64,000 nt of DNA, from NCBI GenBank assembly GCA_049322915.1, contig JBMOPW010000014.1, positions 794,764 through 858,763 on the forward strand, given 5' to 3'. The notes beneath the pieces are model-generated. The model did no database searches and was not told the DNA's origin. It saw only the letters and a list, made by a program, of their open reading frames with translations. Shown here piece after piece: positions 672 to 24,346 of the stretch (positions are counted from its first letter, which is position 1; each line of letters starts with the position of its first letter). Both the position numbers and the translations under genes were made by a program. The DNA is from Candidatus Zhuqueibacterota bacterium (GTDB lineage: Bacteria > Zhuqueibacterota > Zhuqueibacteria > Thermofontimicrobiales > Thermofontimicrobiaceae).

Positions 672-3659
672 TCACTTCACCAGAATCATTTTCTGCATCT
701 CTGAAAAATCATTGACTTCGATTCGGTAAATATAAACGCCGGAGGAGAGCTCGCTCGCATCGAATACTACGGAATGGTAACCGGCGTCTTTCGCCCCTTC
801 AAAAATTGTGTCCATTTTTTGTCCGTTCACATTGTAGAGCGATATTTTCACGAGACCCGCCTCTTTCAGATCGTACTGAATGGTGGTCGACGGATTGAAC
901 GGATTGGGGTAGTTCTGATGCAGCCGATACTCGGTCGGTATTTCGTTCCTCGCTTCCAGGGTGATGGCTGTGTACGAATACCCGATTTCGATATCGCTGT
1001 TATCGGTGGACCGCACAATGGCATTGCCAAATTGAATCTCGGTGTCTTCGCCCACAATGGCGAATTCGAGTTTGGCAATGACACCGGTTCCCAACATCAC
1101 GCCGGGATTGCCCAGAGCAGCGCCGTCAATACTCAGGCTGCTGACCTGGCTGTTCGTCATGAAGAAATCTGTTTCCTTCCAGATGCTGCCCCTCTCGACG
1201 GATTGCAGGGCCAGACCTGCGCCAAAATTGACAGGGATGCTCATACCCTTAATCGCTCCGGAATTTTCTGCTAATTGTACTTCAGCAATGAGCGTGGTGG
1301 TTTGTTTTGTAAGTGACATATTGAGCGAAATCGGTGCCATCTTTTCGGACGATTGCTTCTTCGTCAGCCCCTTCCTGCCACCCATGTTTTCATAGTTCAT
1401 GGCAAAGATCATCAGGTCTTCGAAATCAATGATATTATCGGGAGTGGGGCGTCCATCCGTAAAATGGTTCAGCGTGGGACCCACATCGCACAGATTGTTC
1501 CAGTGGATGAACCCATCGCTCGTGAAATATGCGGCAGCGAGTATCGCAATATCAGCGGCATCCACATCGCCGTCCGGGTCGATATCGCCCAACCAGTACG
1601 AAAGCGACGAGTCCAGCACAGCCGCGCTGTAATGAAAGGCTAGGTCTTGGACGAAAATAGCGCAATAATAGAAATCTCTCAGTGGCGGTGTGTAGTCGAG
1701 GCTGGTGACGAATCCCTCGAAAATCTTTGTCCAGCCATTGGCCAATGCTTCGGCAGGGGTGGTTGGCAAATCAGGCGTCTGACCGTTGTATTCCGGGTAG
1801 CCGCCAAAGCCAATCACCCAGACCTGAATATAAAATGCATCGAGATCCGGATTGGTCCAATCCAAATGGAAGCCATTGGTGGAATCGTCGGCAGCGCCAA
1901 AATCCAGACCGGTCACCGGCTCGATGGGCGTGCCATCCCATCGATAGGGTCCAAATCGCAGCGTGCCGTTGGCAACGTCATCGCCGTTATAGCCTTTCAC
2001 AAAGACATAATAATCAGTGCCCGCCGTCGGAATGCCAAGCTGCAACAGGCCCTGGCTCCATTTTGTCTCCTGACCGGTCCAGTTGTACGAATCGCTATTG
2101 ACAAGCGCGTAGCGATAGTATTCCAGTGTGCCTTCGCCAAATCCACCCACAGCGGTCAGTGTGAGCGTTGTGCTGGCGTTGTCTCCGCTTCGGACGCAGG
2201 TGAGATTCAACGTGGATGGCGGAACCGATAATGTATGTTTGGAGGAAACCGGACTCCAGTCCGATTGATTGTACGCCGGCGTCGAATTGGGATCGTTCAC
2301 ACCATCCGAGACGCGGTATATGAATTCGTAAATATGATTGGGCGTCAGGCCGGTGCACTCATGCACGGAATCATCCTTTGCCCGCGACCGGTTGAATCTG
2401 CCGTCCGTGGTGCATTCGAAGTGATAATATTCTTCGCCCTGGGTAGCGTCTTCAACCGACGCTGCATTCACATGCATGGAGGTTGTGGTGACATTGTTGA
2501 TGTAAATTGTCAGGTCGCCCTGGGGAATTGTAATATCCTTTTTGAATGTCCATTTCCAGAAATTTAAATCCGGTTTGAGCGCTTCGATTGATTGGCCGGA
2601 TTTAGTACTTAATTTATTCAACGCGTCGTTGCTGAATTCATGGTACCCATCGTAATTGCCGGCGTCATCGTAGGCGCGCCAATAGATGGTGTGCAACGCG
2701 GTCTGTTCATCGAGCTTGTCGAAACCGGGAATTAACCAGCCATCATTGTTGTACTGCGTGCTGTTAATGTTGCTTGCGATAGTTTTCCAACTGTCTAAAT
2801 CGATTTTATATTCCACCTTGTCCAGGTTGTAATTGTCGTCGAATCCGAAATTGGAAAACTTGGGCACGTTCCGATACCAGACTTCCTGGACTTCGTTAAT
2901 GGTTTCCATGGTAGGCCGACCAGTGTCGACCACGATTTTCCCATGGCCGATCGAATCGACCGAGATTGCATGATTAACCACATCTCTGAATTTCACCGAG
3001 CTCAGCAGGAAATTATTCCCGATTGTGGAAACCAGGTTGTCCGGCACCGGCATATCGGTTGTAGCTGCAATGGTGAATAAAATCCCGTCGCCGGTCTTGC
3101 CATCAGTGACGCCCAGAATGGAACAGTTGACAGTGTAGTCGCCGCCATCTTCCAGCAGTTCCCAGTGGGTGGGATCGCTTGTGCTGCTCAGAAAAGCGCC
3201 TTCCGTGAAAACGATGGAGGAAAACGCGCTGTCATTGAGTGAAATTTTCACCTCGTAGCCGCGCATGCCGGGATAGACATTCGCAACGCGCACTGTGTAT
3301 GTGAATGATTGATTGCCGCGCAGCAGCGTGTCCGCCGGGGTCACCCAAATTATAATTGGCTCAGTTGTAAAATTGCCAACCTGGCCATAACCGCTGCCGG
3401 CCAACATGGTTATTGGCGAGGAGGCGGCTAAAACAGGAAAGTCATTTCCACTTACGGACGGCGCTGATGGATCGCCCAGTGTATTGCGCCAGCTATCGCC
3501 AGTTATAAATCTTGAACCAGACATTTTTACAGTATTAAATAAATCGACTGCATACGCATCCGAAGCAAATACCGCTTCATCGCCGGATTCAGCCAGCGCA
3601 GTGGATGTCGATAATAATCCGATCACGAAAACGCATAGTAAAATTTTCCAGCTTTTCAT
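672..3659 (-). CDS. T9SS-CTD secreted modular protein A (cohesin-like, Ig/FN3, dockerin-like, cohesin-like, CTD) with no large N-terminal head
   Basis: 995-aa ORF with AAGGAG RBS and signal peptide. Dockerin-like pair GDIDPDGDVDAADI...PDNIIDFEDL; C-terminal LHQNYPNPFNPST...SGVYIYRI...KMILVK. Confidence 0.85.
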   Translation of the reverse strand: MKSWKILLCVFVIGLLSTSTALAESGDEAVFASDAYAVDLFNTVKMSGSRFITGDSWRNTLGDPSAPSVSGNDFPVLAASSPITMLAGSGYGQVGNFTTEPIIIWVTPADTLLRGNQSFTYTVRVANVYPGMRGYEVKISLNDSAFSSIVFTEGAFLSSTSDPTHWELLEDGGDYTVNCSILGVTDGKTGDGILFTIAATTDMPVPDNLVSTIGNNFLLSSVKFRDVVNHAISVDSIGHGKIVVDTGRPTMETINEVQEVWYRNVPKFSNFGFDDNYNLDKVEYKIDLDSWKTIASNINSTQYNNDGWLIPGFDKLDEQTALHTIYWRAYDDAGNYDGYHEFSNDALNKLSTKSGQSIEALKPDLNFWKWTFKKDITIPQGDLTIYINNVTTTSMHVNAASVEDATQGEEYYHFECTTDGRFNRSRAKDDSVHECTGLTPNHIYEFIYRVSDGVNDPNSTPAYNQSDWSPVSSKHTLSVPPSTLNLTCVRSGDNASTTLTLTAVGGFGEGTLEYYRYALVNSDSYNWTGQETKWSQGLLQLGIPTAGTDYYVFVKGYNGDDVANGTLRFGPYRWDGTPIEPVTGLDFGAADDSTNGFHLDWTNPDLDAFYIQVWVIGFGGYPEYNGQTPDLPTTPAEALANGWTKIFEGFVTSLDYTPPLRDFYYCAIFVQDLAFHYSAAVLDSSLSYWLGDIDPDGDVDAADIAILAAAYFTSDGFIHWNNLCDVGPTLNHFTDGRPTPDNIIDFEDLMIFAMNYENMGGRKGLTKKQSSEKMAPISLNMSLTKQTTTLIAEVQLAENSGAIKGMSIPVNFGAGLALQSVERGSIWKETDFFMTNSQVSSLSIDGAALGNPGVMLGTGVIAKLEFAIVGEDTEIQFGNAIVRSTDNSDIEIGYSYTAITLEARNEIPTEYRLHQNYPNPFNPSTTIQYDLKEAGLVKISLYNVNGQKMDTIFEGAKDAGYHSVVFDASELSSGVYIYRIEVNDFSEMQKMILVK

Positions 3660-3765
3660 GCCTTGCTCCTTTTAAATCTATGACGATTTTTAATATTGAG
3701 CACACCCGGCGCTTATTATAATGCCGGGTCGCATTATAATTTTTCCAATAGAAAATTGCGCCCTG

Positions 3766-6700
3766 TTATTTCACGAGCATCATTTTCTTCATCTCTGTGA
3801 AGTCATTCACTTCAATTTTGTAGAAGTAAACGCCGGAAGGCAATTGATCCGCCTGAAGTTGATAGGTGTAATAACCGGCCTGTTGTTCTCCCTCGAACAG
3901 TGTTTTAATGGCCTGACCATTCACATTGTACAATGTCAGTTTCACCAGTCCGCGCTCTTTCAGCCCGTACCGAATGGAGGTTGCTGGATTGAACGGATTG
4001 GGGTAGTTCTGGCACAATTGATATTCGGATGGCGCTGCGTTTTCATCCGGCACAGAAGATGTGATGTATTCGAAGGTTACATCAATATCCGTATTGGCGG
4101 CTGACCGTACACAAGCCCGGGTCAACTCGTAATCAATACTGTCGCTTAGAATATCCATCACCGCAGTTCCGATGGTACCATTGCCCTGAATCACCGCGTC
4201 GTGGCCAAGCGCAGCGCCGGTGAAAATGACCTGGCCATTTTTTTCCACCGGTTCGAAGATATAATGATCCGTCCAGAGATCGCCTTTTTCAAAGCTGGCA
4301 ACGTGCAGCCCTTTCAATTCAAGGGTGAAGCAGAGCCCCTTCACGGCTGCCGGATTGTTCTCCAAATCCAGTCTCGCGTGAAATTGATTGGCCTCGAACC
4401 AGGCGCTGAGTTTCACGACGACCGGATCGGTCAGGCTCGGCGGCTCCGGCGTTGGGAAATCGTAATTCGTATTATCATAATTCATGGAAAAAATCATGAC
4501 ATCTTCAAAATCGATGTTTTGGTCCGGCAGCGGTCGGCTCAGCCTGGTGTGCTTTACCGTTGGTCCCACGTCGCACACCGGGTTCCAGTTGGCATCACCG
4601 GATTGTGAACCGAGCGCATTTCGGAGGATGTCGACATCGCCCATATCCACGTCGCCGTCCGGCGTTTCATCCACATCCCCCAGCCAGTACGACAGGGACG
4701 AATCGCAAATCGCTGAGCTATAGTGGCCGGCCACGTCTCTCACAAAAATGGCGCAGTAATAAAAATCGCGTTCGTCCGGGATGAATTCAAATTCAGAATC
4801 GACGCCGTCGTAGACATTGATCCAGCCGCCATTATCGGCTGCGGTCGTGTTTGCCGGCATGGTGGGGACGAATCCGGTGTATTGCGGATAGCCGCCATAG
4901 GCTTTCACCCACACTTCGACGCCGCCAATTTCCGGGCCGGGATTTTCCCAATTCATATTAATAATGTTGGCAGAGTCGATGCCGGCGCCATAGGTCAGAT
5001 CAGCGATGGGCGTAATGGGCGTGCCGTTCCATTGATAGGGGCCCATAATCAGGGTGCCATTGCCCACATGCGCTGCGTTGTAGCCTTTGATGTGTAGATA
5101 ATAATTGATGTCCGCCTGGCTTGCGCCGCACGTGAGCGTGCTGTCCTGCCAGATGGCTTCTGTATCCGTCCAGGTGTGGGCATTGGATGTGTCCCACACA
5201 AATCGGTAATATTCCACTTTTCCCTGGCCATATCCGCCCACGGCAGTGAACGTGAACGCGGCGGTGTTCACAACACCGCTTTTATCGCAAGTGATGTTGG
5301 CGTAGGTTGGCGCCACAGAAAGCGTGTATGTGGAAAATGTTTCGCTCCACGCTGTCTCGTTGCAGGCTGGCGTGGCATTCGGGTCGTTCACGCCATCGGA
5401 AACCCGATACCGGAATTGGTATTGTCTGTTCGGCGTCAGGTTGGAGCAGGTCATCTCCCGGTTTGCCAGGATTCGCGCCTGATCATAGCTTTCATCGGTG
5501 ACACAATCGAATTCATAATATTCATCGCCCTGGAATGCATCCTCGACCGCGGCGCCGGTCACTTTCATGCCGATGGAGGTGATTTCCGAGAAGGAGACGG
5601 TGAGGTTGCCGGCCGGCGCTGAAACGTCCTTTTTGAATCGCCACACCCAGTCCGCGTCGCCGGATTGATAATCCAGATCATCGACCGCGCGCCAGTAAAC
5701 CGTGTGGGGCGCGATGTTTTCGGACAATTCGGAGAAGTTCGGCGTCACCCAATTGCTGACCCGGTAGACGCTGTCGGCAATGGCGTCAGCGAGGATAGTC
5801 CACGCTCCGTCATTCAATTTATATTCAATTTTTTGCAGGTTCAAATTATCCCGGAAGACCAGGCTGCTGAACACCGGCGCAGAACGACGCCAGGTGTTTT
5901 GCGATTCAGTGACCGGCTGCATGGTTGGCGCGGCTGTATCGATGATGATTTTCGCGCCGCTGATGATGCTGCCCGGAATGGGATTGTTGTTCACATCGCG
6001 CAGATCAACGTCCGGGAATTGCAGATTTTCTTCGGCCGGAAAAACAAGGCCGCCGGGAACGGTTTCAGCCGTGGTGACGGTGACCGTGAAAAGTGTGCCG
6101 GAACCGGCCTTGCCCTCGGTGGGTCCCAGGATGGCGCAGTTCACGCGGTACTGCCCGTTGTCCCCTGTTGCCTGCCAGAAAGTCAAATCGCCGGTGCTGC
6201 TCAAAAATGCGCCTTCTGCGAATATGGGATTTGTAAAATGCGCCGGGTCGAACTGAACATAAATATCAAATCCGCGCATGGCTTCCACATTTCCAACATT
6301 CACGTTGAAGACAAGCTGCTGGCCGCCTTTGGCCACGAGCGAATCCGGCAGGGTATAGACCGGCACGTCCTGGCTTTCGAACGAGCCCATGTCCGGTGTG
6401 CCAATCCTGGCGAAACCGCGTTGATCGGTCGCCGGGGCGCCATCGGCCGTGCCGGAGTTGATGGCCGCGCTGCCGAACAACAGTGCGTGGGTTTTGCCCA
6501 TTCCGCCATTGTCGGCAAGATCTTCGAGCAGAGGATCGGTGTCGTTAAAATTGCCGTCGCCCACATCGGACAAGCTGGCGTCGCGGCAAATGGAATAACT
6601 TCGAACCAGGTTGAATGCTCCGTCGCCGCTCGTGGCGAAATTATCCGCCGCGCCGTTGTCCAGAATGCAGTTTTTCAGGGTGAGATTCACCACGCCGGCC

Positions 6701-7548
6701 TCGAAGCTGGTGTCCGTGGCCTCGGCAAAAATGCCTTTTCCCACGCCGCCGGCGGAATTGTCAGCAATGGTCACATTGGTGAACATGGCGGACAGCTTCC
6801 CGCTTTCCTGTTCGGCCGATGACGAACTCATGGCATGCAGCGATACCCCGCCGCCTTTGCCGGAAAAATTGCCGGCTGCGTTGCCGGAAATCGTGCAGTT
6901 GGTCACAGCGAGATTTTTCGGGTCTTTGCTCAATTGCATGAAAAGTCCGCCGCCATGGCTGCTGTTGATGAGTATGGAATTGCCGGCGATGGTGCTGTTT
7001 TCTATGGTCAAATGCCCATCGCGGCAAAAAATTCCGGCGCCGTCGTACTGGGACGTGTTCTCGCGAATGTCGCATCCCGCAATGGTCATCGATCCTGTTT
7101 TGCTGTACACGCCGCCTCCGCGCACGCCGCTATTCTTCCTGATGATGCAATTGCGCAGGGTCAGGTCCGCCTGGCTGTAAATGCCGGCGCCGTTCTCATT
7201 GGTGTTTCCGTGCCGGATCGTCAGATTTTTGAGGTGGATCTGGTAGCCTGCGCTCAACAGAAATACGCGGCGCCCAACGTCTGCGCCGGTGTCCGACGCC
7301 TGAATGACAGAGGTGAGCGGATTTTCGCCGCGGATGGTCACATGTTTTTCGACCGAAATGTTATAATCTGTAATGGTTCCGAACACGATGAGAGTATCGC
7401 CGTCGGTTGCGCTGAGCAGGGCATCGGTCACTGTGGCGTAACTATGGCCACTGCCGATCTCCAGAATTGCCCCGTGCAAAGGCGGCGATGAAAGCGCGAG
7501 TAAAAATAGGATATTTACAATAACTGCAAAGAGATGAAAGCGTTTCAT
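3766..7548 (-). CDS. T9SS-CTD secreted modular protein B (parallel beta-helix / choice-of-anchor-Q-like head plus shared core)
   Basis: Start refined to MKRFHLF at 7548 (AGGAGG RBS). GGG(I/V)-type beta-helix repeats and a DQRGFAR..PDMGSFE motif; same core as A, including GDVDETPDGDVDMGDV; CTD. Confidence 0.85.
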   Translation of the reverse strand: MKRFHLFAVIVNILFLLALSSPPLHGAILEIGSGHSYATVTDALLSATDGDTLIVFGTITDYNISVEKHVTIRGENPLTSVIQASDTGADVGRRVFLLSAGYQIHLKNLTIRHGNTNENGAGIYSQADLTLRNCIIRKNSGVRGGGVYSKTGSMTIAGCDIRENTSQYDGAGIFCRDGHLTIENSTIAGNSILINSSHGGGLFMQLSKDPKNLAVTNCTISGNAAGNFSGKGGGVSLHAMSSSSAEQESGKLSAMFTNVTIADNSAGGVGKGIFAEATDTSFEAGVVNLTLKNCILDNGAADNFATSGDGAFNLVRSYSICRDASLSDVGDGNFNDTDPLLEDLADNGGMGKTHALLFGSAAINSGTADGAPATDQRGFARIGTPDMGSFESQDVPVYTLPDSLVAKGGQQLVFNVNVGNVEAMRGFDIYVQFDPAHFTNPIFAEGAFLSSTGDLTFWQATGDNGQYRVNCAILGPTEGKAGSGTLFTVTVTTAETVPGGLVFPAEENLQFPDVDLRDVNNNPIPGSIISGAKIIIDTAAPTMQPVTESQNTWRRSAPVFSSLVFRDNLNLQKIEYKLNDGAWTILADAIADSVYRVSNWVTPNFSELSENIAPHTVYWRAVDDLDYQSGDADWVWRFKKDVSAPAGNLTVSFSEITSIGMKVTGAAVEDAFQGDEYYEFDCVTDESYDQARILANREMTCSNLTPNRQYQFRYRVSDGVNDPNATPACNETAWSETFSTYTLSVAPTYANITCDKSGVVNTAAFTFTAVGGYGQGKVEYYRFVWDTSNAHTWTDTEAIWQDSTLTCGASQADINYYLHIKGYNAAHVGNGTLIMGPYQWNGTPITPIADLTYGAGIDSANIINMNWENPGPEIGGVEVWVKAYGGYPQYTGFVPTMPANTTAADNGGWINVYDGVDSEFEFIPDERDFYYCAIFVRDVAGHYSSAICDSSLSYWLGDVDETPDGDVDMGDVDILRNALGSQSGDANWNPVCDVGPTVKHTRLSRPLPDQNIDFEDVMIFSMNYDNTNYDFPTPEPPSLTDPVVVKLSAWFEANQFHARLDLENNPAAVKGLCFTLELKGLHVASFEKGDLWTDHYIFEPVEKNGQVIFTGAALGHDAVIQGNGTIGTAVMDILSDSIDYELTRACVRSAANTDIDVTFEYITSSVPDENAAPSEYQLCQNYPNPFNPATSIRYGLKERGLVKLTLYNVNGQAIKTLFEGEQQAGYYTYQLQADQLPSGVYFYKIEVNDFTEMKKMMLVK

Positions 7549-7632
7549 TGGTATCCTCCTGAGTTGATCTTTGATGATGAATCCCTTTACGCTGAAGCAT
7601 AATTTCAATTAGGCATGGGAGTTTTCAGGAAA

Positions 7633-7659
7633 TATCGACATTCAGCGGAAAAGAATAAG
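7633..7659 (-). promoter_or_regulatory. Sigma28-like promoter motif, copy 1 (CTTAT-N15-GTCGATA)
   Basis: Same motif with identical 15-nt spacing occurs upstream of genes B, C and D. The -10 element resembles the FliA/SigD GCCGATA box. Confidence 0.5.
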
Positions 7660-7736
7660 AGCTAATTTGCAATGTGACCATAATTTATCAGATGTTACTA
7701 GTGAGAGAATAATCAGCGCGAACTCCGATCGCGATG

Positions 7737-7953: not shown

Positions 7954-7972
7954 CGTTACCGTGATATTTTCG

Positions 7973-14379: not shown

Positions 14380-14550
14380 GGTTTTATTGAATTATGACAA
14401 TAATTTGATTGATGTTACAGGGGAGAGAAGAGAGAATAGAAAATGGGAAATAGGAATTGGGGAATAGGAATTAGAGTTTGTAGTAACGGCTTCAGCCGTT
14501 CAACCGGATCGAAAAGATGGTCTCCATCTTCGAGATGGAGACCATCTAAA

Positions 14551-14969
14551 TTTCCGGCGCGGATAATTCGTGGAAACGTATGTTTCCGAATAATGAAACC
14601 GTTCGGGATGAATATCCCGAACGATCGTTTTGTGTAATATTGTAAACCGTTCCGTTCCCACGCAGACCATGGGAACGAGTTATCATTTCCATGGAGTGCA
14701 GTCCCTTTATGGACTGCGCGCGACGCATAAAGGCGTCGCACTCCATGGTCGAATGCGCGGATAATTCGTGGAAACGTATGTTTCCGAATAATGAAACCGC
14801 TCGGGATGAATATCCCGAGCGATCTATTCCAATTATGTAGGGGACGAATATATTCGTCCCCTGCGTGTTAAAATTTCGATCGCGCCGGATATTCATCCGG
14901 CGCGGGCAATGGATCGGAACGTACGTTCCGGATCAGGGGAACCGTTCGGGATAAACATCCCGAACGATC
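14551..14969. repeat. REP/BIME-like hairpin cluster 2, mixing several hairpin types
   Basis: Three copies of the GGAA(A)CGTA..TTCC / CGGGAT..ATCCCG unit, plus CGTTCCCACGCAGACCATGGGAACG, GCAGTCC-CTTTAT-GGACTGC, and a GTAG-led GGGACGAATATATTCGTCCC palindrome at about 14837-14863. Confidence 0.8.
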
Positions 14970-14981
14970 GATTCCCCGGAC

Positions 14982-15019
14982 AAAAAAAAATCGCCCGGGA
15001 TACATGATCCCAGGCGATC
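14982..15019 (-). terminator. Intrinsic terminator after gene D
   Basis: Minus strand GATCGCCTGGGATC...TCCCGGGCGA followed by a T-run; homologous to 7805-7843. Confidence 0.7.
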
Positions 15020-15044
15020 AAATGGTTTACGTTTTAGGGTTAGG

Positions 15045-18000
15045 TTATTTCATCAGCACCAGCTTGCGCACATCGCGGAAGTCATTGACCTGAATCCGGT
15101 ACAGATAGACGCCGGACGGCAAATTACCGGCTTCGAACACGAAGCTGTGATAGCCGGCGTTTTTGACTTCATCGAGCAGCGTGGCAATGCGCTGACCGTT
15201 GATGTTGTACAATGTTATCGTCACCTGTCCGTCCGCCTTCAAATCGTACAGAATGGTTGTGGAAGGATTGAACGGATTGGGATAGTTCTGATGCAGCTTG
15301 TATTCCGTGGGAATCAATCCTTCGGAAAGCAGCGCCACATCGGTGTAGGCGTAGGTCAACTCCAGGTTAGCATTGCCCTGGGAGCGCGCCACAGCCTCGC
15401 CAAACTGAATGGAGCTGTTGCTGCCATTTACGGTGAAAACAATTTCCGCAACCACGCCATTGTCTTTGAAAATACCTTCATGCTCCAGCGCGGCCGCACT
15501 GATGTACAGACAATTGCCTTCCTGGCCGGCGTCGAAGAAATCACCGGAGGTAACCAGGCTGCCTCGTCGGACCTGCGAGAAGGACAGATCAGCGCCGAAA
15601 GTGATGGGGATGTACAATCCCTTGACAACGCCGGCGTTTTCATTCAACTGCACTTGCGCTACAAACTGAGCGCCAACCCGTTGAATGTTCAGCAACAGCG
15701 CAATGGGGCTGCTGGTCACTTTGGCCTTTGATTTATCCGTCTTATCCTTGCTGGTGTTTTCATAGTTCATGGCAAAGATCATCAGATCTTCGAAATTGAT
15801 ATCATCGTCTGGAAGCGGACGACTGATTCGACCAAAGTCCAGGGTTGGCCCGACATCGCAGTGGCCATTCCAGTCGGCGTCGATGGAACTGGTATGATAG
15901 GCGCTGGAGAGGATGGCAATATCGGACGCTGTCACTGAGCCATCCGGGGATGCGTTCACATCGCCCAGCCAGTAGGACAGGGAGGAATCGATGGCCGCGG
16001 CGCTGTAATGCTTGGCCATATCTTCGACGAACAATGCGTAATAATAGAAATCGCGATTGGCTGGTGCATATTTTTTGCTGGTGGCCAGCGAATCCAATAT
16101 TTTTGTCCAGCCATCACCAGACGCTTCGTCCGGCGTTGTTGGGAACGTCGGCACTGCACCGGTGTATTCCGGATAGCCGCCGAATCCCTTGAACCAGACT
16201 TCAATTTTATAGGCGTCGTTTTGGGGATTGGTCCAACTGCATTGCAACGAGTTGCCGGACGTACTGAGTTCCAGTTTGGTCACCGGCGAAATGGGCGTGC
16301 CATCCCACTGATACGGCCCAATCGTCAATGTACCGTTGGCGACGTCTTCGGCGTTGTAACCTTGCACATGGAGATAATAATTCTTATTGGCCGTGGGAAT
16401 ACCCATTTTCAAATCGCCGGATGCCCACTCGGACTCCGTGCCTTTGAAGGTATGGGCAATGCTGTCGTCCAGCGCATAGAGATAATACTGGACAGTGCCA
16501 GCGCCAAATCCACCCACTGCGGTGAACGTGAGGGTGGTGGTGCTGATGGTCCCGTGCTTGTCGCAGGTTACTGTTGATGTTGTTGGAGCCACGGACAGCG
16601 TGTATTTGGAATATTCGTTGCTCCACGACGTGGCATTGTAGGCCGGGGTAGCGCCGGGATCATTGACGCCGTCGGACCCCTGGTACTTGAATTTGTATTG
16701 GGTATTGGCTGCCATTGTAGCGCATTCGTGAATGGAATCGGCCAATGTTCGGGCGCGGTCGTACGTGTCATTCGTAGTACAATCGAACTGGTAATACTCC
16801 TCGCCCTGGGTGGTGTCAGCCAACGCAGCGCCGACCACCTTCATGGAATAAGCGGCCACATCTTTGAACGAAATGCTGAGGTCGCCCAGTGGGGCTGTTT
16901 CATCTTTGTAGAAACAGAAATCCCAGGTTTTATCGTAGCCGCCCAGATTGCCGGCATCGTCGCAGGCGCGCAAATAGAACCAGTGCAAGGCTTTACGTTC
17001 GGCCAGTTCGGCGTAGCCAGGCAACGGCGCATTGCTAGCAGAGGCAGTTTTACCCTTGATTCCACCCATAATGGTCGTCCAGGCGTCATCATTCAATTTG
17101 TAGCTGAGCGAATCCAGTTCATAATTATCCGCGACGCGAAAAACCTGAAGTACGGGCTGACTGCGATACCACACGCTGTCAGCTTCGGCCAGGGAATCCA
17201 TAGTCGGCGGCGCCGTATCGATGATGATTTTTGACCCGGCGCTGCTGTCGCACGGAATCGCGATATTGTTCACATCGCGAAGCAGAACATGAGACAGCAT
17301 CAGATTGTCACTCGATGGATTGACAAGACTATCGGTCACTGCATCCGCCGTTGTCAGCATCATGGTGAACAACGTGCCGTCGCCGGTGACGCCGTCTGTG
17401 ACGCCTAAAATAGCGCAATCAACGGTGTAACGGCCATTGGCCCCGGAGGCGTCCCATTGCGTGGTCTTACCGGTGCTGCTGAGGAACGTCCCTTCGGTAA
17501 ACTGAGGCGAAGTAAAATGATCGTCATTGAAATCGACCTGAACGCTGAAGCCGCGCATCGCCGGCAGCACATTGGCAATGCTCACGGTGTAGGTCACTTG
17601 CTGACCGCCTCGGAGCAATGTGTCAGAAGGCGTTGTTGTAATCAGAATCTGTTTTGTGGTGAACGTGGAATCAGCCCCATAACCTGTGCCGGCGCCGTTG
17701 GTGGCGTAGGCGCGAACATAATACGTGATCCCGTGGGCCAATCCTGTGATTGAACTGGAGAATGAGCCCGTGCCGTCGCCGTTGCTGGTGTGGCTGCTAT
17801 CCACTGTGGGATTTGCAGTCAAACCCCAGCACACGCCGCGGACTGTCACCGAATCGCCGCCATCGGCAGTCACATTGCCGCCGCCAACTGCGGAAATCAC
17901 GGTGATGGAATCGATGGCCGCTGTGACAACGGTGGGCACTGTGATGCCAACGCCTTCGATTTCGAAGTTGAAATCGCTTTCATCGCTATCATTGTTGCGA

Positions 18001-21000
18001 ACATAAACGTAGGTGGAACGGGTGCCGCCGTCCGATGGATTGAACTGAATTGTGAATGAAAGGGAATCTCCCGGGTTTATATAGAAATTCTCCGGCTGGG
18101 CCGTGACTTCAAAATCATACCCTTGGGGTCCTTTGAGAAGAATGAGGGCCCTGCCGGATGGCGAATTCATTGTAAACCCTGCCAATTCCATGTTTGAATC
18201 TCGGTCACCCAAATAAAGCCGTTCGTTTCCAGTATTAAAAATCCTGAACGTTCGATTGATGGTTCCGCCATCCACGGCAGCAGAGCCGAAACTGGTGGAG
18301 TCTGTGGCCGAAGGTGTGGTGTCGCCGTTTGCAATGGAGATGTAATTTCCGCGAACATCGATCTCAGGAGTAACGCCCGTGCCCCGGATGGCGAAAGTAT
18401 AGGGGCTGTTTGAGAAGTCGTCGCTATTGATGTCGATGGACGCAGAACGAATTCCCACTGCGGATGGATTGAATGCCACCGTGAACGTCGTGGAGTCGCC
18501 AGCCGCCACAGAATCCGATGGCTGCGTTGTCACCGTGAAATCACTGGCATGATCGCCGCCAATGTTCACGTTGTCTCTGTCGATGAAATTCACCCGGGAA
18601 ACAGCGTCCGCATTCTTGACAATCGGATTGAAATGGAGCGTGGCCGTTCCGGTATTAAGGATTGTGAAAATGTGTGTGGAAGAATCGCTGACAACGCTCA
18701 CACTGTCGAAATCGGTGAAATCAAGGAATGACGGCACTGTATCGCCGTTGGCGATGGTGGTATAATTCCCGCGCACTTCGATTGTCGGCGTTACTCCTGC
18801 GCCCAGAATGGCAAAGGTGTAGGGACTCTCATCGCCGTCGTTGCTGTAAAGACTGACGGTTGCGCGACGCTCGCCGCTGTCCGATGGATTGAACGTCACG
18901 ACAAACGAAGCGGAATCGCCAACAGCGATGGGGCTTGTCGGTTGCGTCTTCACAGTGAAATCAGCCGCATTGTCGCCGCTGATTGTGACAAGGTCGATTG
19001 GTCTGGAATTGCGAAGAGAATTATCCGTGTGAGTTATTATCTGGCCGAGCACCAGAGACGCTGTGCCGGTGTTGAAAATTTTGAAGGTGCGATCCATGGA
19101 TCCCAAAAGCACGCCGACGCTGTCAAAATCGGTGTGATCGGCTTGGGATGGAGTTTCGTCGCCATTTGCTATGGAAACGTAATTGCCCTGGATGTCGATT
19201 TCCGGGACAGCGCCAAAACCCTGGATGGAGAAGTTGTAGGGACTTTCGTCCGAATCATCGCTGTAAATGGAGATGGTGGCGCTGCGCACACCGTTTCCCG
19301 ACGGATCGAATTTTACCGTGAACGTTGTGGAATCGCCCGGGCTGATTTCGAGAGATGGCGCCTGGGTCACAGTAAAATCTGCTGAGTTTGTACCGCCAAT
19401 GACCACGGGATTTTCCAGTTCAATCGTCACCGGTTTTTCATTTCTGGCGTCAGATTGAGAGTTGCCCAGGTAAAGTGTTTTATTGCCGGTATTGTAGATG
19501 CTGTACGTCCGTTCGAGGTCGCCATTGCTTACAGCGACGCTGTCGAAATCTGTATGGTCGGTCAGGGACGGGCTGGCGTCGCCGTCTACAATAGAAACAT
19601 AATTACCGTGCACATCGATTTCCGCGGCAAGGCCAATACCCTGGATTGCGAACGTATAGGGGCTTTCATCGCTGTCGTTGTTGGGTATCGACACAGTCGC
19701 TGACCTGGTCCCGTTTGAAGATGGGTCGAATTGAACCATGAATGAAGCGGAATCGCCTGGTTCAAGATAGGCGACAGAGGGCTGAGTGGTCACTTCAAAA
19801 TCAACCGAATGATCTCCGCTTATTGTGACGATTTCGCTTGGTCCGGTTTGATTTAATCTTGATCTGTACATATCCATTTCAGCCTTATCCGGCTGCGATA
19901 AAAAAAGTATATCATTTCCAGTGTTAAAAATTTTGAAGGTGCTATTGATTGTTCCCCCATCGACATTGGCGGATCCGAAACTGGTGGAATCATCCGCAGA
20001 GGAGATAGTGTCACCGTCCGCAATGGAAAGGTAATTTCCGCGGACGTCGATTTCCGGGACAGCTACAGGATCTGTGCCAAATTTGTATTCATAAGCGCCC
20101 ATATCGATGGTGCCTGCACTGCCGTTCGTTTTATTCAGCTTGCGATCAAATCCGGCGCCGCGAATGTCGGTGGTCTCGGAGTTATACGCATCGTACCCGG
20201 CATCGGCGCAGGGAGAAACGTTGTAGATTCTATAATCTCCACCAGCCGCGTCCACAATTAGAGGATTGCTGGTAATATTATTGTTCGTCGCTGTGAAGGT
20301 TGTGCCTATATTAAAAACATCACGGGTTGCGTTTCCATAGCAGGAATAATTCAACGTAACAGTCCCGGCAGGAGCCATTCCGTTTTCCAGGTAGAACTCG
20401 TTTCCTGCTATCCCAGTATTACCGTAAATAATGCAGTTAAAGTATGTGCCTGATGAGCCGAACCAGTTTCTAACGCCTCCCCCGCCTCCATTGGCGGCGT
20501 TATTTGTAATTGTCACATTTATAAAAATCGGCGAAACTTCGGTGTGGTTGTAAATGCCGCCGCCGCCTGAATTAGAATAATTGCCGGCAATCAAGACGTT
20601 GGTAAAAACAGGATCCGCATTGTTTTGATTGATTATTCCGCCGCCATAGGATTCTGCGTAATTGTTCAGAACCATGGTATTAGTAAGGGAAGGATTACTG
20701 GACAGGTTGTACATTCCTCCGGCCTGGCTATATGATTTATTCCACGAAATGTTTGAATTGGTAATAACAGGAGAGGATGTGTCGTTAAACATTCCTGCGG
20801 CAGTATAGTAAGCATAGTTATAAATAATGTTCACAGAATTAAGTGAGGGGGAATTTAATTGATTATACATACCCGCTCCCGTTATGTGCAATAAACCGGG
20901 ATCTGAGGCATTTCCGCCCCTAACGGTGAATCCGTCAAGAACCGCGGTTGTGTCGAGCCCCAATCCGCTGGGATGATAGAACACATGAAAGCAGTTCTCG

Positions 21001-21851
21001 GAATTGTTGCTGAAGGACAATGTTTGTCCCGACCCGGTCACCACATCGTCCTGGTTGAAATCGCCGCTGAGAATGGTTTCATTGGCTTCGCCCATGCCAT
21101 AATTGGCGCGTTCGCTGACAGCAGATTCCGTGCCTGCAAAACCGCCGTAAATAGCAACGCCGTTTTTCATACGAAAATGGAAATAGCGTGACGTGTTAGT
21201 CAAATCGTATGCTGAGGTGGGGAAATAGGTGCCGGCTTTCACCCAGATCTTGTCGCCGCTTGTGGCCAAATCCAGCGCAGCCTGCAGTGTTTGTTTGGCA
21301 TTATCCCAGCTTAAACCATCGCCGCTGTCATCGGCTTTGGTTGAATCCACGTAATAGGTGGGCGACTCCCCGGTTCCCTTGATTGTAAACGTGTACGGAT
21401 TCTCATTAAAATCATTATTGGGGATGGAAACCGTGGCCTGCCGCGCGCCTGACGCACCCGGGGTGAATTTGATGGTAAACGACGCCGGCATCCCCATACT
21501 AACAAATTGGGAGGAGGGTTGGCTGGTAACCTCGAAATCGCCGGGGTTCGTCCCTGTAATCGAAACATAAGGGGTGCCCTGCAGTATTAAAACCGATTCA
21601 GGACCTCCCAAATTGCTGATTGAGAAACTCACCGATGAATCGCCGCCGACGGCCGAACTCCCAAAATCGAACTCCCCGGTCCCGCTGGGTATGGACGTGC
21701 CGTTTTGTTGGACATCAATTTCCGGTGGCATAATAATATTTTCCGGCGGCATAGGATCCTGAGCAAAAAGCCCCACCGCCAGGACGCAAATGAACCAGAG
21801 CGTCAAGGCGCTGATCCAGAATGTGCGATTACCTGTTAATCTTGTTTTCAT
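15045..21851 (-). CDS. T9SS-CTD secreted modular protein D (choice-of-anchor-D-like, beta-helix, 5 more choice-of-anchor-D-like domains, FN3, shared core)
   Basis: Start refined to MKTRLTG at 21851 (GGGAG RBS). Six EI(D/E)(V/I)..N..NTG..L..D.DE.PY.F.I.G domains; GDVNASPDGSVTASDI...PDDDINFEDL; CTD. Confidence 0.88.
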   Translation of the reverse strand: MKTRLTGNRTFWISALTLWFICVLAVGLFAQDPMPPENIIMPPEIDVQQNGTSIPSGTGEFDFGSSAVGGDSSVSFSISNLGGPESVLILQGTPYVSITGTNPGDFEVTSQPSSQFVSMGMPASFTIKFTPGASGARQATVSIPNNDFNENPYTFTIKGTGESPTYYVDSTKADDSGDGLSWDNAKQTLQAALDLATSGDKIWVKAGTYFPTSAYDLTNTSRYFHFRMKNGVAIYGGFAGTESAVSERANYGMGEANETILSGDFNQDDVVTGSGQTLSFSNNSENCFHVFYHPSGLGLDTTAVLDGFTVRGGNASDPGLLHITGAGMYNQLNSPSLNSVNIIYNYAYYTAAGMFNDTSSPVITNSNISWNKSYSQAGGMYNLSSNPSLTNTMVLNNYAESYGGGIINQNNADPVFTNVLIAGNYSNSGGGGIYNHTEVSPIFINVTITNNAANGGGGGVRNWFGSSGTYFNCIIYGNTGIAGNEFYLENGMAPAGTVTLNYSCYGNATRDVFNIGTTFTATNNNITSNPLIVDAAGGDYRIYNVSPCADAGYDAYNSETTDIRGAGFDRKLNKTNGSAGTIDMGAYEYKFGTDPVAVPEIDVRGNYLSIADGDTISSADDSTSFGSANVDGGTINSTFKIFNTGNDILFLSQPDKAEMDMYRSRLNQTGPSEIVTISGDHSVDFEVTTQPSVAYLEPGDSASFMVQFDPSSNGTRSATVSIPNNDSDESPYTFAIQGIGLAAEIDVHGNYVSIVDGDASPSLTDHTDFDSVAVSNGDLERTYSIYNTGNKTLYLGNSQSDARNEKPVTIELENPVVIGGTNSADFTVTQAPSLEISPGDSTTFTVKFDPSGNGVRSATISIYSDDSDESPYNFSIQGFGAVPEIDIQGNYVSIANGDETPSQADHTDFDSVGVLLGSMDRTFKIFNTGTASLVLGQIITHTDNSLRNSRPIDLVTISGDNAADFTVKTQPTSPIAVGDSASFVVTFNPSDSGERRATVSLYSNDGDESPYTFAILGAGVTPTIEVRGNYTTIANGDTVPSFLDFTDFDSVSVVSDSSTHIFTILNTGTATLHFNPIVKNADAVSRVNFIDRDNVNIGGDHASDFTVTTQPSDSVAAGDSTTFTVAFNPSAVGIRSASIDINSDDFSNSPYTFAIRGTGVTPEIDVRGNYISIANGDTTPSATDSTSFGSAAVDGGTINRTFRIFNTGNERLYLGDRDSNMELAGFTMNSPSGRALILLKGPQGYDFEVTAQPENFYINPGDSLSFTIQFNPSDGGTRSTYVYVRNNDSDESDFNFEIEGVGITVPTVVTAAIDSITVISAVGGGNVTADGGDSVTVRGVCWGLTANPTVDSSHTSNGDGTGSFSSSITGLAHGITYYVRAYATNGAGTGYGADSTFTTKQILITTTPSDTLLRGGQQVTYTVSIANVLPAMRGFSVQVDFNDDHFTSPQFTEGTFLSSTGKTTQWDASGANGRYTVDCAILGVTDGVTGDGTLFTMMLTTADAVTDSLVNPSSDNLMLSHVLLRDVNNIAIPCDSSAGSKIIIDTAPPTMDSLAEADSVWYRSQPVLQVFRVADNYELDSLSYKLNDDAWTTIMGGIKGKTASASNAPLPGYAELAERKALHWFYLRACDDAGNLGGYDKTWDFCFYKDETAPLGDLSISFKDVAAYSMKVVGAALADTTQGEEYYQFDCTTNDTYDRARTLADSIHECATMAANTQYKFKYQGSDGVNDPGATPAYNATSWSNEYSKYTLSVAPTTSTVTCDKHGTISTTTLTFTAVGGFGAGTVQYYLYALDDSIAHTFKGTESEWASGDLKMGIPTANKNYYLHVQGYNAEDVANGTLTIGPYQWDGTPISPVTKLELSTSGNSLQCSWTNPQNDAYKIEVWFKGFGGYPEYTGAVPTFPTTPDEASGDGWTKILDSLATSKKYAPANRDFYYYALFVEDMAKHYSAAAIDSSLSYWLGDVNASPDGSVTASDIAILSSAYHTSSIDADWNGHCDVGPTLDFGRISRPLPDDDINFEDLMIFAMNYENTSKDKTDKSKAKVTSSPIALLLNIQRVGAQFVAQVQLNENAGVVKGLYIPITFGADLSFSQVRRGSLVTSGDFFDAGQEGNCLYISAAALEHEGIFKDNGVVAEIVFTVNGSNSSIQFGEAVARSQGNANLELTYAYTDVALLSEGLIPTEYKLHQNYPNPFNPSTTILYDLKADGQVTITLYNINGQRIATLLDEVKNAGYHSFVFEAGNLPSGVYLYRIQVNDFRDVRKLVLMK

Positions 21852-22271
21852 ATAAAACTCCCTTATGATGTTAAACATATCCTGAAAATTTGTGTCACAT
21901 ACCGGTCTGAAAGCCGGAATGACTAAATGAGTTATTATCCTTTGAGAACAACTTCACTTAAGGTGGGGACAGCGCACATCTGATCAGCATAAAAGGTTTT
22001 TTCTTTGTCATTTGATTCCGTGTTTCCATAAGAAATCCTCCAGTTGGTAAATGTTTAAAAAGCGCAGCAATGGTGCGGCGCGCCTTGTTTCAGTGACATA
22101 GGTCGACGGATGGTTTCCTGTCTCATGAAATCGCCCCGTCAATTCGAAAAAATAATTCAGACACAACCTGCGTGCAGTACCCTGGCGTGTTCATGGGCTG
22201 CGCCATTCTATCGGTAAAAAGAGTATTCCGGGAAGAAAATAAACTCGATGCGCAACAAAAGTTAGATGAAG

Positions 22272-22298
22272 TATCGACAGGATTCCTGGGGAAATGAG
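22272..22298 (-). promoter_or_regulatory. Sigma28-like promoter motif, copy 3 (CTCAT-N15-GTCGATA)
   Basis: Same motif and spacing, about 420 nt upstream of gene D. Confidence 0.45.
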
Positions 22299-22395
22299 GG
22301 AAAAGTGAATAAGTAACGAAAATATCATTTTCTTGAATGGATTGAAACGATGGGTCATCGAAAAAGGAGAGGTATTCCGATCGCACCGTATCTCC

Positions 22396-22903
22396 GATCG
22401 CGCCGGATATGTATCCGGCGCGGGCAATGGATCGGAACGTATGTTCCCGATCAGTGGAGCGGTTCGGGATGAATATCCCGAACGATCCGCGTGGGCGACG
22501 AAACCGATCGCGCCGGATATTCATCCGGCGCGGGCAATGGATCGGAACGTATGTTCCCGATCAAGGGGAACCGTTCGGGATGAATATCCCGAACGATCCG
22601 GAAGGACAAACCGTTTGCCCGGAGCGCAGTCCCTTTATGGACTGCGTGCGACCCCATGATCGCGCCGGATATTCATCCAGCGCGGGCAATGGATCGGAAC
22701 GTATGTTCCCGATCAAGGGGAACCGTTCGGGATAAACATCCCGAACGATCCGGAAGGACAAACCGTTTGCCCGGAGCGCAGTCCCATTATGGACTGCGTG
22801 CGACCCCATGAACGCGCTGGATATTTATCCGGCTAGGGCAATGGATCGGAACATACGTTCCGGATCAGGGGAGCGGTTCGGGATGAATATCACGAACGAT
22901 CCG
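22396..22903. repeat. Tandem array of four ~93-bp three-hairpin units (BIME-like)
   Basis: Units at about 22396, 22506, 22658 and 22810: GATCGCGCCGGATATTCATCCGGCGCG-GGCAATG-GATCGGAACGTATGTTCC(C)GATC-..-GTTCGGGATGAATATCCCGAACGATC. A ~58-bp linker occurs twice. Confidence 0.92.
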
Positions 22904-22908
22904 GAATG

Positions 22909-22939
22909 AAAAAACGCCCGGGAAACACATCCCGGGCGA
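22909..22939 (-). terminator. Intrinsic terminator after gene E
   Basis: Minus strand CGCCCGGGA-TGTGTT-TCCCGGGCG-TTTTTT. Confidence 0.75.
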
Positions 22940-22972
22940 GCATGATATTTAAACGTTGGAGGAGAAGCGATA

Positions 22973-24346
22973 TTATTTCAATAAAGTCAGCGTGCGGATT
23001 TCTGAAAACTCGCCGGCTTCGATTTTATAGAAGTACACGCCGGAAGGGAGTTGATCGGCCATCAACGTGCACTGGTGCTGCCCGGCCGATTGTTCTCCGG
23101 CAAAAATGGTGGCGACGAGTTGACCGCAGAGATTGAACAGGGATAACCGGACAAAGCCGGCGGCAGGCAGGTGATACGGAATTATGGTGGAAGCATTGAA
23201 CGGATTGGGGTAATTCTGAAGCAGTTGAAAAGTCCCGGCAGTCACAGTCACTTCCACGGCCGCGCTGTAAGAGAAGGCGCCGTCCGTATCGATTTGCCTG
23301 AGCCGATATTGAACCTGGCCGGTGGGCGCGTTTCTGTCGGTGAACGAATAGGTCAGTGTGGCGCTGGAATTGCCGTGGCCGGCCACAAATCCGATGCGCG
23401 CCCAATCCTGCTGGCCATCTGCGCCAGCCAGTCGCTCGATTTCGAATCCATAATTGTTGGATTCGGACTGGGTTTCCCAGCTCAACGCTATGTGATCCTG
23501 GCGAAGGTCGACCCAAAACCCGGATAGTTCCACCGGCAGCGTGATGGTGCTTGTTTCGAAGCTTCGTGTTTCCGTGTACTTTGTCCCGCGATAGGAGGAG
23601 GCATAGGCGCGGAAAAAATAGGTGGCGCCTGGCTGCAAACCTGTGGCGTTCACGGTGAAGTCGCCGGTGTTGCCGACCACTATTTTTTTCCCGGTGTAGC
23701 TGGAAACTGTGGGAATGCCTGTTTGGCTCCATACCACGCCGCGCTCGATGATGGCCGAACCGCCGTCATCCACAACAGTCCCGCCGAGATATGCCGAATA
23801 GGCGGTGATATTCTGAACTGTCGGATCCGTGATGACCGGGAGCGCCGCACAATTAACAATGACCGTGCCTGGCTGCGTTGCGACATCCGGAATGATCTCT
23901 CCGTCCACGGCATAGTAGAATTCCTGGTCCACCACAGTCAAATTTTCGACGCCATCGCGGACATTGCGAAATGTCAGATCCAGAATGGCGCCGGAATCGT
24001 CGATGGACAGACCCGCGCCCAGCACGATGCATTCCACACGGATGACGTCTGCGGACTCCTGCACCACGCGCCACCAGTAGCTGCTGAAGCCGGAAACCAG
24101 CGCGCCCTTTTCAGCCGAAATGAACTGGCACAGTTCAGGGTTGTATTTCAAATACACTTTGAATCCCCGGAAACCGTCGCTATTCTGTTCGACGTTGAGG
24201 TCGATGTTGAAATTGCCGGTCTTGTTCACGTGAAGCGTGTCAGGCAGAAAACAGGTTTGAAAACTGTAGGCGTTTAAAGAGACGAGCAGGATGGCAAAAA
24301 AAATGATGATGCGGATCGGTCGAGTCTTTTTGGAATTCTTCTTCAT
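22973..24346 (-). CDS. T9SS-CTD secreted protein E (cohesin-like, FN3, LPVEL domain, CTD)
   Basis: Signal peptide after MKKNSKK. Cohesin-like FNIDLNV..FRGFKVYLKYNPE..EKGAL..GAILDLTF; FN3 GGTVVDDGGSAIIERGVVWS; LPVEL; LLQNYPNPFN. Confidence 0.85.
   Translation of the reverse strand: MKKNSKKTRPIRIIIFFAILLVSLNAYSFQTCFLPDTLHVNKTGNFNIDLNVEQNSDGFRGFKVYLKYNPELCQFISAEKGALVSGFSSYWWRVVQESADVIRVECIVLGAGLSIDDSGAILDLTFRNVRDGVENLTVVDQEFYYAVDGEIIPDVATQPGTVIVNCAALPVITDPTVQNITAYSAYLGGTVVDDGGSAIIERGVVWSQTGIPTVSSYTGKKIVVGNTGDFTVNATGLQPGATYFFRAYASSYRGTKYTETRSFETSTITLPVELSGFWVDLRQDHIALSWETQSESNNYGFEIERLAGADGQQDWARIGFVAGHGNSSATLTYSFTDRNAPTGQVQYRLRQIDTDGAFSYSAAVEVTVTAGTFQLLQNYPNPFNASTIIPYHLPAAGFVRLSLFNLCGQLVATIFAGEQSAGQHQCTLMADQLPSGVYFYKIEAGEFSEIRTLTLLK

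Follow-up and report, generated by a model that had tools for sequence, protein, structure and literature searches.

A conserved cohesin–dockerin base in type IX secretion cargo of a Candidatus Zhuqueibacterota bacterium, and its candidate role in surface assembly

The 64,000-nt window described here (the whole stretch of DNA analysed, whose positions are used throughout) comes from a genome of a Candidatus Zhuqueibacterota bacterium and carries five genes, A–E, all on the minus strand in the region 672-24394 (Table 1). For MetK, a housekeeping marker encoded in the window, the nearest named relatives bear the label 'candidate division KSB1' (78–85% identity), and by this single marker the organism is probably a KSB1 bacterium. 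Genes A–D encode paralogues built on a common base, in which an N-proximal cohesin-like domain (cohesin 1), a stalk of immunoglobulin (Ig)/FN3-like domains, a further FN3-like domain, a dockerin-like module with two calcium-loop (Ca-loop) segments, a second cohesin-like domain (cohesin 2) and a type IX secretion system (T9SS) C-terminal sorting domain (CTD) follow one another; the heads that precede this base differ from gene to gene. Gene E encodes a lone-cohesin protein that ends in the same kind of CTD. We find that profiles and structure models assign both β-sandwich domains to the cohesin fold and point to a divergent dockerin in the Ca-loop module, and that the base recurs in T9SS cargo of many uncultured phyla. 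We further propose, at about even confidence, that A–E may assemble in trans through cohesin–dockerin contacts to form a coat on the cell surface.

The C-terminal cores of A–D are collinear over ~900 residues and 42–66% identical in pairwise BLASTP comparisons, every pair at E = 0: A and B share 42% over 908 aa, A and C 51% over 914 aa, A and D 50% over 911 aa, B and C 44%, B and D 45% over 876 aa, and C and D 66% over 1252 aa. As judged from these alignments, the similarity is far above chance level. Invariant alignment columns include MRG, FLSS, CAILG, RDV..N, GYP.Y, RDFYY, HYS, SYWLGD, CDVGPT and FED.M.F.MNY. The initial annotation, made from the sequence of the window, had described four co-oriented paralogues with a collinear core of this length and had quoted its motifs; the BLASTP results agree with the former, and the motifs are present both in the translations and among the invariant columns. 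It had also described gene E as a lone cohesin-like domain with FN3 and a CTD, which was borne out with the addition of an Ig-like domain. In the stalk, relatives of gene A show weak Big_13/fn3/OmpL47-type matches.

The heads vary far more than the base does. Gene A is almost headless, whereas gene B carries a choice-of-anchor Q/NosD-like β-helix (Choice_anch_Q, 1.3e-19). In gene C, BNR_4 repeats (8e-21) are followed by a choice-of-anchor Q β-helix and two choice-of-anchor D (ASH/HYDIN-type Ig) domains, and the head of gene D combines six choice-of-anchor D stretches (9.6e-90) with a β-helix of the same kind as that of gene C. These Pfam and NCBIfam matches bear out the propeller, β-helix and ASH-like heads named in the initial annotation. 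The β-helix region common to C and D is 61% identical, which suggests that heads have been shuffled among the paralogues. A Pfam scan of A–E at E ≤ 0.1 gave no match to a glycoside hydrolase (GH) or carbohydrate-binding module (CBM) family, as the initial annotation had supposed for GHs, and 'non-cellulosomal' is for this reason a fair description. On sequence grounds, the heads look like carbohydrate-binding, surface-binding or lyase-like modules rather than GHs.

Recognition of the core modules required profiles and folds because Pfam returned nothing for the gene A cohesins and a match of E = 0.05 for its dockerin. Cut out individually, cohesins 1 and 2 of gene A had no Pfam match at E ≤ 10, and a single-sequence phmmer search of gene A against PDB sequences also gave none at E ≤ 10; the equivalent search with gene E gave weak Ig/FN3 matches only. 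An AlphaFold2 model of gene A cohesin 1, based on an alignment of 24 sequences (A3), has a predicted local distance difference test score (pLDDT) of 88.9 and a predicted template modelling score (pTM) of 0.85. When this model was compared with 48,161 chains in a VIA-align search independent of Foldseek, the top 20 matches were all cohesins (Z 10.3–15.9), with 6kgc_A the best (Z 15.9, 2.4 Å, 137 aligned residues); the next fold after the cohesins, that of Gram-positive pilins, came at Z 9.0. Moreover, the A3 profile reaches solved cohesins at E = 2.4e-4.

For the C-terminal part, we aligned the last 421 residues of gene A with 29 short relatives (A2) and obtained an AlphaFold2 model of the four-domain cassette with pLDDT 90.0 and pTM 0.72. 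Residues 1–114 of this cassette are FN3 by fold (Z 10.4–11.3). Cohesin 2 (cassette residues 197–330) matches the type I cohesins 6kgf_C (Z 16.2, 2.8 Å, 133 aligned) and 1ohz_A (Z 16.0, 1.9 Å, 122 aligned), with type II cohesins lower at Z 12–13. Foldseek is concordant with the cohesin call (TM to target, 0.72–0.74), and the A2 profile finds the cohesins 2vn5_A, 1g1k_A and 2xdh_A at E values of 3e-5 to 7e-5. In their predicted structures, both β-sandwich domains of gene A have the cohesin fold; the cohesin-like label given to them in the initial annotation thus stands, with Z scores of 15.9–16.2 to solved type I cohesins.

Family-level scores for the other copies are mixed. Cohesin 2 of gene C reaches 29 bits against Pfam Cohesin (PF00963; cut-off 24.1) in a six-frame search and is unlisted in the whole-protein hmmscan, the gene E cohesin stays at 19.6–21.2 bits, below that cut-off, and 10 of 30 cassette relatives match the family at E ≤ 0.01. 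A hidden Markov model (HMM) made only from the A–D cohesin 1 sequences picks out the gene E cohesin from a set of 156 proteins with E = 9.3e-7, which places it with the cohesin 1 type. In gene B, our own HMMs give E values of 9e-54 for cohesin 1, 3e-30 for the dockerin, 9e-22 for cohesin 2 and 2e-25 for the CTD. The HMMs of cohesin 1 and cohesin 2 cross-hit; an hhalign comparison of the cohesin 1 alignment with the cassette alignment picked up the cohesin 1 columns that some cassette rows contain and is uninformative on the kinship of the two.

The first Ca-loop of gene A, DIDPDGDVDAAD, is canonical and is followed by a helix. The second runs from CDVGPT to IDFED, with a 12-residue insertion relative to 4u3s_B, and leads into the helix LMIFAMNY. 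Among PDB sequences, a profile built from 45 modules of this kind, drawn from many genomes (A4), gave 13 matches at E ≤ 1, 12 of which are dockerin-bearing chains; five fall below 1e-3 (4u3s_B, 6e-5; 4wi0_B, 7e-5; 2y3n_B, 1.9e-4; 2b59_B, 8.8e-4; 5k39_B, 9.7e-4), and the alignment with 4u3s_B covers both dockerin repeats. The A2 profile likewise reaches solved dockerins. Across the 45 sequences, positions 1 and 12 of both Ca-loops (D9, D20, D42 and D65) are invariant or nearly so, and the FEDLMIFAMNY helix after loop 2 is conserved. The cassette model places helices at residues 127–136 and 172–181, where they are expected, with pLDDT >90. NCBIfam dockerin_GC scores 13–17 bits against a cut-off of 29. 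We read the Ca-loop region as a divergent dockerin subtype, nearest the type II X-Doc kind; the dockerin-like label of the initial annotation is sustained at the profile level, though Pfam Dockerin_1 stays below its cut-off.

Each of the five proteins has a T9SS type A sorting domain at its C-terminus, with TIGR04183 scores of 34.4–44.3 bits against a cut-off of 23 (44.3 for A and 34.4 for E) and PF18962 scores of 32.4–39.4 bits against 27, and their translations start with signal-peptide-like N-termini. The genome (6.25 Mb in 45 contigs, 96% complete) encodes T9SS machinery, including the translocon protein SprA, which scores 893.6 bits and has its neighbours in the reading frame, and PorV, which scores 133 bits. 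By CTD, signal peptide and genomic machinery, A–E are predicted T9SS type A cargo, as their C-termini had led the initial annotation to expect. They would be part of a large class, as our own CTD HMM matches 211 reading frames of the genome. Separately, PF19572 (PorV) has 19 matches in the genome, 16 of them above cut-off, in frames of ~320–370 aa, where one or a few would be expected; the surplus PorV-like barrels might shuttle or anchor particular subsets among the 211 CTD proteins.

Elsewhere the genome contains eight Pfam-grade dockerin matches, and its Pfam-grade cohesin matches total 18, namely cohesin 2 of gene C and 17 others. A CTD-type tail is present in each of the 18 reading frames inspected around those cohesin and dockerin matches, and their heads include FG-GAP/ASPIC, LTD with a nuclease, a C39-like peptidase with BACON, PKD/SGL and BNR domains; GxGYxYP is the sole putative GH-like head among these 18 other cohesin or dockerin proteins. 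These matches and heads suggest that the organism has a sizeable, largely non-glycolytic cohesin–dockerin system on its T9SS secretome. Five of the 18 (L085–L089) pair an N-terminal cohesin with a CTD, like gene E, and together with the eight Pfam-grade dockerins they fit a working cohesin–dockerin economy on T9SS cargo. An hhalign comparison of A4 with a profile of the eight (A5) gave a probability of 6%, which indicates that the A–D dockerin and the genome's Pfam-grade dockerins are different subtypes; this bears on subtype and not on dockerin homology, for which the A4 matches in the PDB are the basis. A second cluster of T9SS cargo, with Pfam-grade cohesins and dockerins (G000:C14:289902-306312; L078, L083, L085–L087 and L089), lies ~490–505 kb before the window; in it, two FG-GAP proteins bear a dockerin, to which one of them adds a cohesin, and the next four proteins have a cohesin at the start and a CTD at the end.

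The base extends far beyond this window. A phmmer search with gene A against 1.84 billion cluster representatives gave 518 matches at E ≤ 1e-30, most of which cover only gene A residues ~575–995 and do so at their own C-terminus. We used our domain HMMs to annotate 153 proteins, the window's five and 148 representatives. A dockerin is present in 148 of the 153; in 147 of these 148, a cohesin follows each dockerin and a CTD ends the chain, the exception having no CTD match. An upstream cohesin is found in 116 of the 148 dockerin proteins, and the spacer between it and the FN3 is most often ~100 residues or absent, as against ~300 residues in A–D. One library protein of 3578 aa (P0111, an identifier inferred from its length and four matched stretches) strings together four tandem FN3–dockerin–cohesin units ahead of a single CTD.

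Scanning one genome per species, we found 438 stretches that encode the cassette, with identity of up to 74% in the closest genome. The 75 loci retained carry titles from Cloacimonadota (many, and the most abundant), Krumholzibacteriota, Eisenbacteria, Fibrobacteraceae, Gemmatimonadota, Ignavibacteria and others. They contain 99 dockerin frames, of which 98 continue into a cohesin and a CTD and 85 have a cohesin upstream; two or three dockerin-bearing genes occur together in several of the loci. Close by in these loci are frames that match a cohesin but lack a dockerin, as gene E does, and some of them have a CTD. One cultured carrier of the cassette is Candidatus Syntrophosphaera thermopropionivorans (L023). 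Among 35 close relatives, the heads are Beta_helix (16), NosD (10), pectinesterase-like (2), FG-GAP (1) and BNR (1), and no classical GH family is among the families matched at E ≤ 1e-5. These library and species scans mark cohesin–stalk–FN3–dockerin–cohesin–CTD as a conserved and widespread base of T9SS cargo; the initial annotation had proposed such a survey of the core, and the 438 stretches, with Cloacimonadota, Krumholzibacteriota and Eisenbacteria among their sources, answer it with wide occurrence. In a different setting, two FG-GAP proteins labelled Anaerolineae/Chloroflexota (P0154 and P0156) match cohesin 1 and Ig of gene A at 41% and 39%, and their precomputed Pfam lists contain no CTD family; the N-proximal cohesin module may for this reason occur outside T9SS phyla.

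How might such proteins work? We propose that A–D are exported as T9SS cargo to the cell surface, each presenting its variable head on the conserved cohesin–Ig/FN3 stalk–FN3–dockerin–cohesin–CTD base. After export the CTD would presumably be lost, with the protein then either tethered or set free, as is established for those T9SS cargo proteins that have been studied. The Ca-loop dockerin of one molecule could then plug into a cohesin of another, either a paralogue or the CTD-anchored lone-cohesin protein E, and the resulting homo- and hetero-oligomers would keep the heads on the envelope. Since each chain offers a single plug and two sockets, linear as well as branched arrangements would be possible, among them the branched surface mesh put forward in the initial annotation; the adaptor or cap role that it suggested for gene E would likewise depend on such binding. 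The best reading of the assembly would be an adhesive or substrate-capturing coat and not a cellulosome, because the heads look binding- or lyase-like rather than hydrolytic. Gene E and the lone-cohesin frames of the same loci in other genomes are potential partners in trans.

What the analysis shows is domain identity, the export signal and the conserved order of modules; from these we infer that the proteins bind, that they do so in trans and what the heads do, and would put trans binding among A–E, like the coat it would build, near the midpoint between doubt and belief. A three-chain complex prediction of cohesin 2, cohesin 1 and a dockerin partner scored 0.01 against a mark of 0.32, a figure that counts neither for nor against binding, as it was obtained for a partner of uncertain fold, without controls and with a tool calibrated on pairs. 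Several observations weigh against assembly in trans. The gene A dockerin scores 14.2 bits against Pfam Dockerin_1 (PF00404), below the gathering score of 22.9, and none of the 30 relatives matches Dockerin_1 at E ≤ 0.01. The 12-residue insertion that sets the second Ca-loop apart from those of solved dockerins could alter both calcium binding and cohesin recognition. Moreover, A–D need no cohesin anchor to reach the surface, because each has its own CTD. Finally, the position of the dockerin, always directly ahead of a cohesin, and the four-domain pTM of 0.72 fit intramolecular pairing equally well.

In an intramolecular arrangement, the dockerin would bind the following cohesin of its own chain, possibly clasped by cohesin 1 as well, to give a rigid, calcium-stabilised pedestal beside the CTD; the proteins would not polymerise, and the base would be a stalk that keeps the head off the membrane. 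We consider such a lock, and the pedestal it implies, rather unlikely, even with the dockerin adjoining cohesin 2 in 98 of 99 dockerin frames of other genomes and in all five of this genome, with a linker between the two of ~20 residues, variable and modelled at low confidence, and with a pTM that, from the score alone, suggests confident relative placement of most domains. A single-chain model would draw a co-evolving trans contact as a cis contact too, and the lock leaves partnerless cohesin 1 and the lone cohesins of gene E and of similar neighbours elsewhere. There is also a measured precedent for a cohesin and dockerin of one protein acting in trans, as reported in the relevant passages of PMC4611034.

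Anchoring could also run one way, with the A–D dockerins binding only lone-cohesin CTD proteins such as E and the two A–D cohesins recruiting other dockerin cargo; A–D would then be adaptor scaffoldins rather than self-polymers. Gene E lies beside the cluster and has a cohesin of the cohesin 1 type, and the genome supplies eight other dockerins of Pfam grade, with FG-GAP and nuclease among their heads, along with several N-terminal cohesin–CTD proteins, yet we hold this arrangement to be distinctly improbable: those other dockerins are of a different subtype by the hhalign result, and the A–D subtype occurs in only five proteins of the genome, all of which also carry cohesin 2, which favours a self-contained set. 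Least probable of all, in our estimate, is that the folds are reused without any cohesin–dockerin binding, as structural or carbohydrate-binding spacers of T9SS cargo. A fold match reveals no function, most of the modules score below Pfam cut-offs and the second Ca-loop has its insertion; by contrast, strict co-occurrence of the dockerin with a cohesin across many phyla and conservation of the calcium-ligand positions and of the FEDLMIFAMNY helix would be hard to reconcile with mere spacers.

The assembly in trans that we favour has parallels in cellulosomes and clear differences from them. Compared with the cellulosomal pairs of Clostridium thermocellum (1ohz) and of the Acetivibrio cellulolyticus ScaA X-Doc (4u3s), both gene A cohesins are closest to type I (Z ~16), and the A4 dockerin profile aligns with 4u3s_B over both repeats, with an Ig/FN3-type module directly ahead of the dockerin in both systems. 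Unlike cellulosomes, A–E lack a tandem-cohesin scaffoldin, a CBM and a dockerin-tagged GH, which are the marks of a cellulosome, and in their diderm host the anchor is a T9SS CTD instead of an S-layer homology (SLH) domain or sortase. The A–D dockerins differ from cellulosomal ones in the insertion in their second Ca-loop and in scores below the Dockerin_1 cut-off. Outside cellulosomes, a cohesin of Archaeoglobus fulgidus (PDB 2xdh) is among the best matches of both gene A cohesins (Z 15.9 and 15.2; profile E = 6.5e-5); its source is an archaeon without a T9SS, unlike the host of A–E, and we take the same protein to carry a dockerin as well. Non-cellulosomal cohesins and dockerins have reportedly long been known (Peer and co-workers are said to have covered them in 2009).

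Two published systems come closer. In the amylosome of Ruminococcus bromii, the cohesin of Amy4 recognises the dockerin of the same polypeptide, from which the authors infer a route to multimers, according to the passages on this protein in PMC4611034. Like Amy4, A–D carry cohesin and dockerin on one chain; as described there, Amy4 is a GH13 amylase from the Firmicutes and has a single cohesin, whereas A–D have two cohesins, no catalytic domain that we recognise, T9SS export and binding that is predicted rather than measured. In Cloacimonadota (Ca. Stygibacter), passages of Williams et al. 2021 (PMC8542988) infer a cellulosome-like complex with CTDs for surface attachment, in which enzymes with signal peptides carry dockerins at the C-terminus and a scaffoldin of 3,755 aa has tandem cohesins and CBMs. 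This system resembles A–E in its origin from a candidate phylum of the Fibrobacterota–Chlorobiota–Bacteroidota (FCB) group and in its secreted dockerin proteins, cohesin protein and CTDs. The main-text passages of that account describe no one-chain cohesin–stalk–FN3–dockerin–cohesin–CTD unit, and the 'C-terminal dockerin' proteins they mention could be this cassette. As this complex was inferred for Cloacimonadota, T9SS-anchored cohesin–dockerin assemblies in FCB candidate phyla are, to judge from these passages, already in print, and with the Amy4 precedent (PMC4611034) beside the Cloacimonadota one (PMC8542988) the idea is less new than the initial annotation assumed. The full-text literature searched (subscription journals and supplements lying outside its scope) yielded no description of the one-chain base, its breadth across phyla or a dockerin subtype that escapes Pfam. 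What is new here is the breadth of the base across phyla, the further Pfam-grade modules in this genome and the absence of GHs from A–E.

More broadly, the cohesin–dockerin pair is, to our knowledge, the best-understood natural protein 'plug and socket' and is known almost only from Gram-positive fibre degraders, while here the same modules make up the base conserved among hundreds of T9SS-exported surface proteins of little-studied, uncultured phyla. If they bind as expected, they would explain the surface organisation of very large secretomes, improve the annotation of many 'hypothetical' T9SS cargo proteins and provide new orthogonal cohesin–dockerin pairs for protein engineering. In a bolder version, the base would serve T9SS-bearing FCB candidate phyla generally (KSB1, Cloacimonadota, Krumholzibacteriota, Eisenbacteria, Fibrobacterota and others) as a means of self-assembly, by which cargo would chain head to tail and branch through two cohesins and one dockerin into a calcium-dependent outer-membrane coat, a surface layer of exchangeable heads. 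We regard this generalisation as unlikely; were it true, the surface organisation of T9SS cargo would be independent of, or additional to, lipopolysaccharide anchoring.

Table 1 Genes A–E and their modules. Positions are those of the window unless another contig is named; the domain limits in gene A come from HMMs built in this analysis.
Feature	Position	Strand	Description
Gene A	672..3659	-	995 aa: signal peptide, N-terminal region of ~75 aa, full core
Gene A cohesin 1	2901..3371	-	N-proximal
Gene A stalk	1920..2900	-	three Ig/FN3-like domains, residues ~251-580; conserved in A-D
Gene A FN3-like domain	1599..1937	-	ahead of dockerin (GYPEY...RDFYY...HYS)
Gene A dockerin-like module	1374..1610	-	two Ca-loop and helix segments
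Gene A cohesin 2	942..1358	-	adjoins CTD
Gene A CTD	675..920	-	T9SS type A sorting domain; PF18962 7.6e-10, TIGR04183 1.3e-11
Gene B	3766..7608	-	1280 aa from TTG, 1260 aa from M21 (M21 precedes signal peptide): β-helix head and core
Gene B cohesin 1	5914-6381	-	
Gene B FN3	4690-5028	-	
Gene B dockerin	4459-4701	-	
Gene B cohesin 2	4036-4452	-	
Gene B CTD	3769-4014	-	
Gene C	7973..14185	-	2070 aa: BNR_4 propeller repeats, β-helix, two ASH-type Ig, core
Gene C cohesin 1	10133-10600	-	
Gene C FN3	8903-9241	-	
Gene C dockerin	8672-8914	-	
Gene C cohesin 2	8249-8653	-	
Gene C CTD	7976-8221	-	
Gene D	15045..21878	-	2277 aa from first ATG, 2268 aa from M10: ASH-type Ig, β-helix, five ASH-type Ig, core
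Gene D cohesin 1	17193-17663	-	
Gene D FN3	15975-16304	-	
Gene D dockerin	15744-15986	-	
Gene D cohesin 2	15321-15728	-	
Gene D CTD	15048-15293	-	
Gene E	22973..24394	-	473 aa, or 457 aa from M17 (start 24346): signal peptide, lone cohesin, FN3, Ig-like domain, CTD
Gene E cohesin	23828-24277	-	
Gene E CTD	22976-23221	-	
Sixth, partial paralogue	other contig, G000:C36:6378-9128		stalk domain, FN3, dockerin, cohesin, CTD

Within the cluster, a strong terminator-like hairpin with a 13-bp stem and a T run (14989-15019, minus strand) stands directly 3′ of the gene D stop, and a second 13-bp hairpin (14597-14626, minus strand) lies in the 860-bp gap ahead of gene C; by these hairpins, C and D are probably separate transcription units. 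Farther along the window, at 33340-38368, the gene of a 498-aa protein whose tail is of the FlgD_ig/CTD type has directly downstream of it that of a GH38 α-mannosidase (1176 aa). The neighbourhood also encodes a TonB-dependent receptor whose N-domain is carboxypeptidase-regulatory-like (30550-32832) and a FecCD/ABC/periplasmic-binding transporter (26924-29624). A 436-aa open reading frame at 38404-39714 matches, with its N-terminus, only the C-terminal part (profile positions 137–213 of 221) of the N6_N4 DNA methylase family, and from this match may be a truncated or fused methylase.

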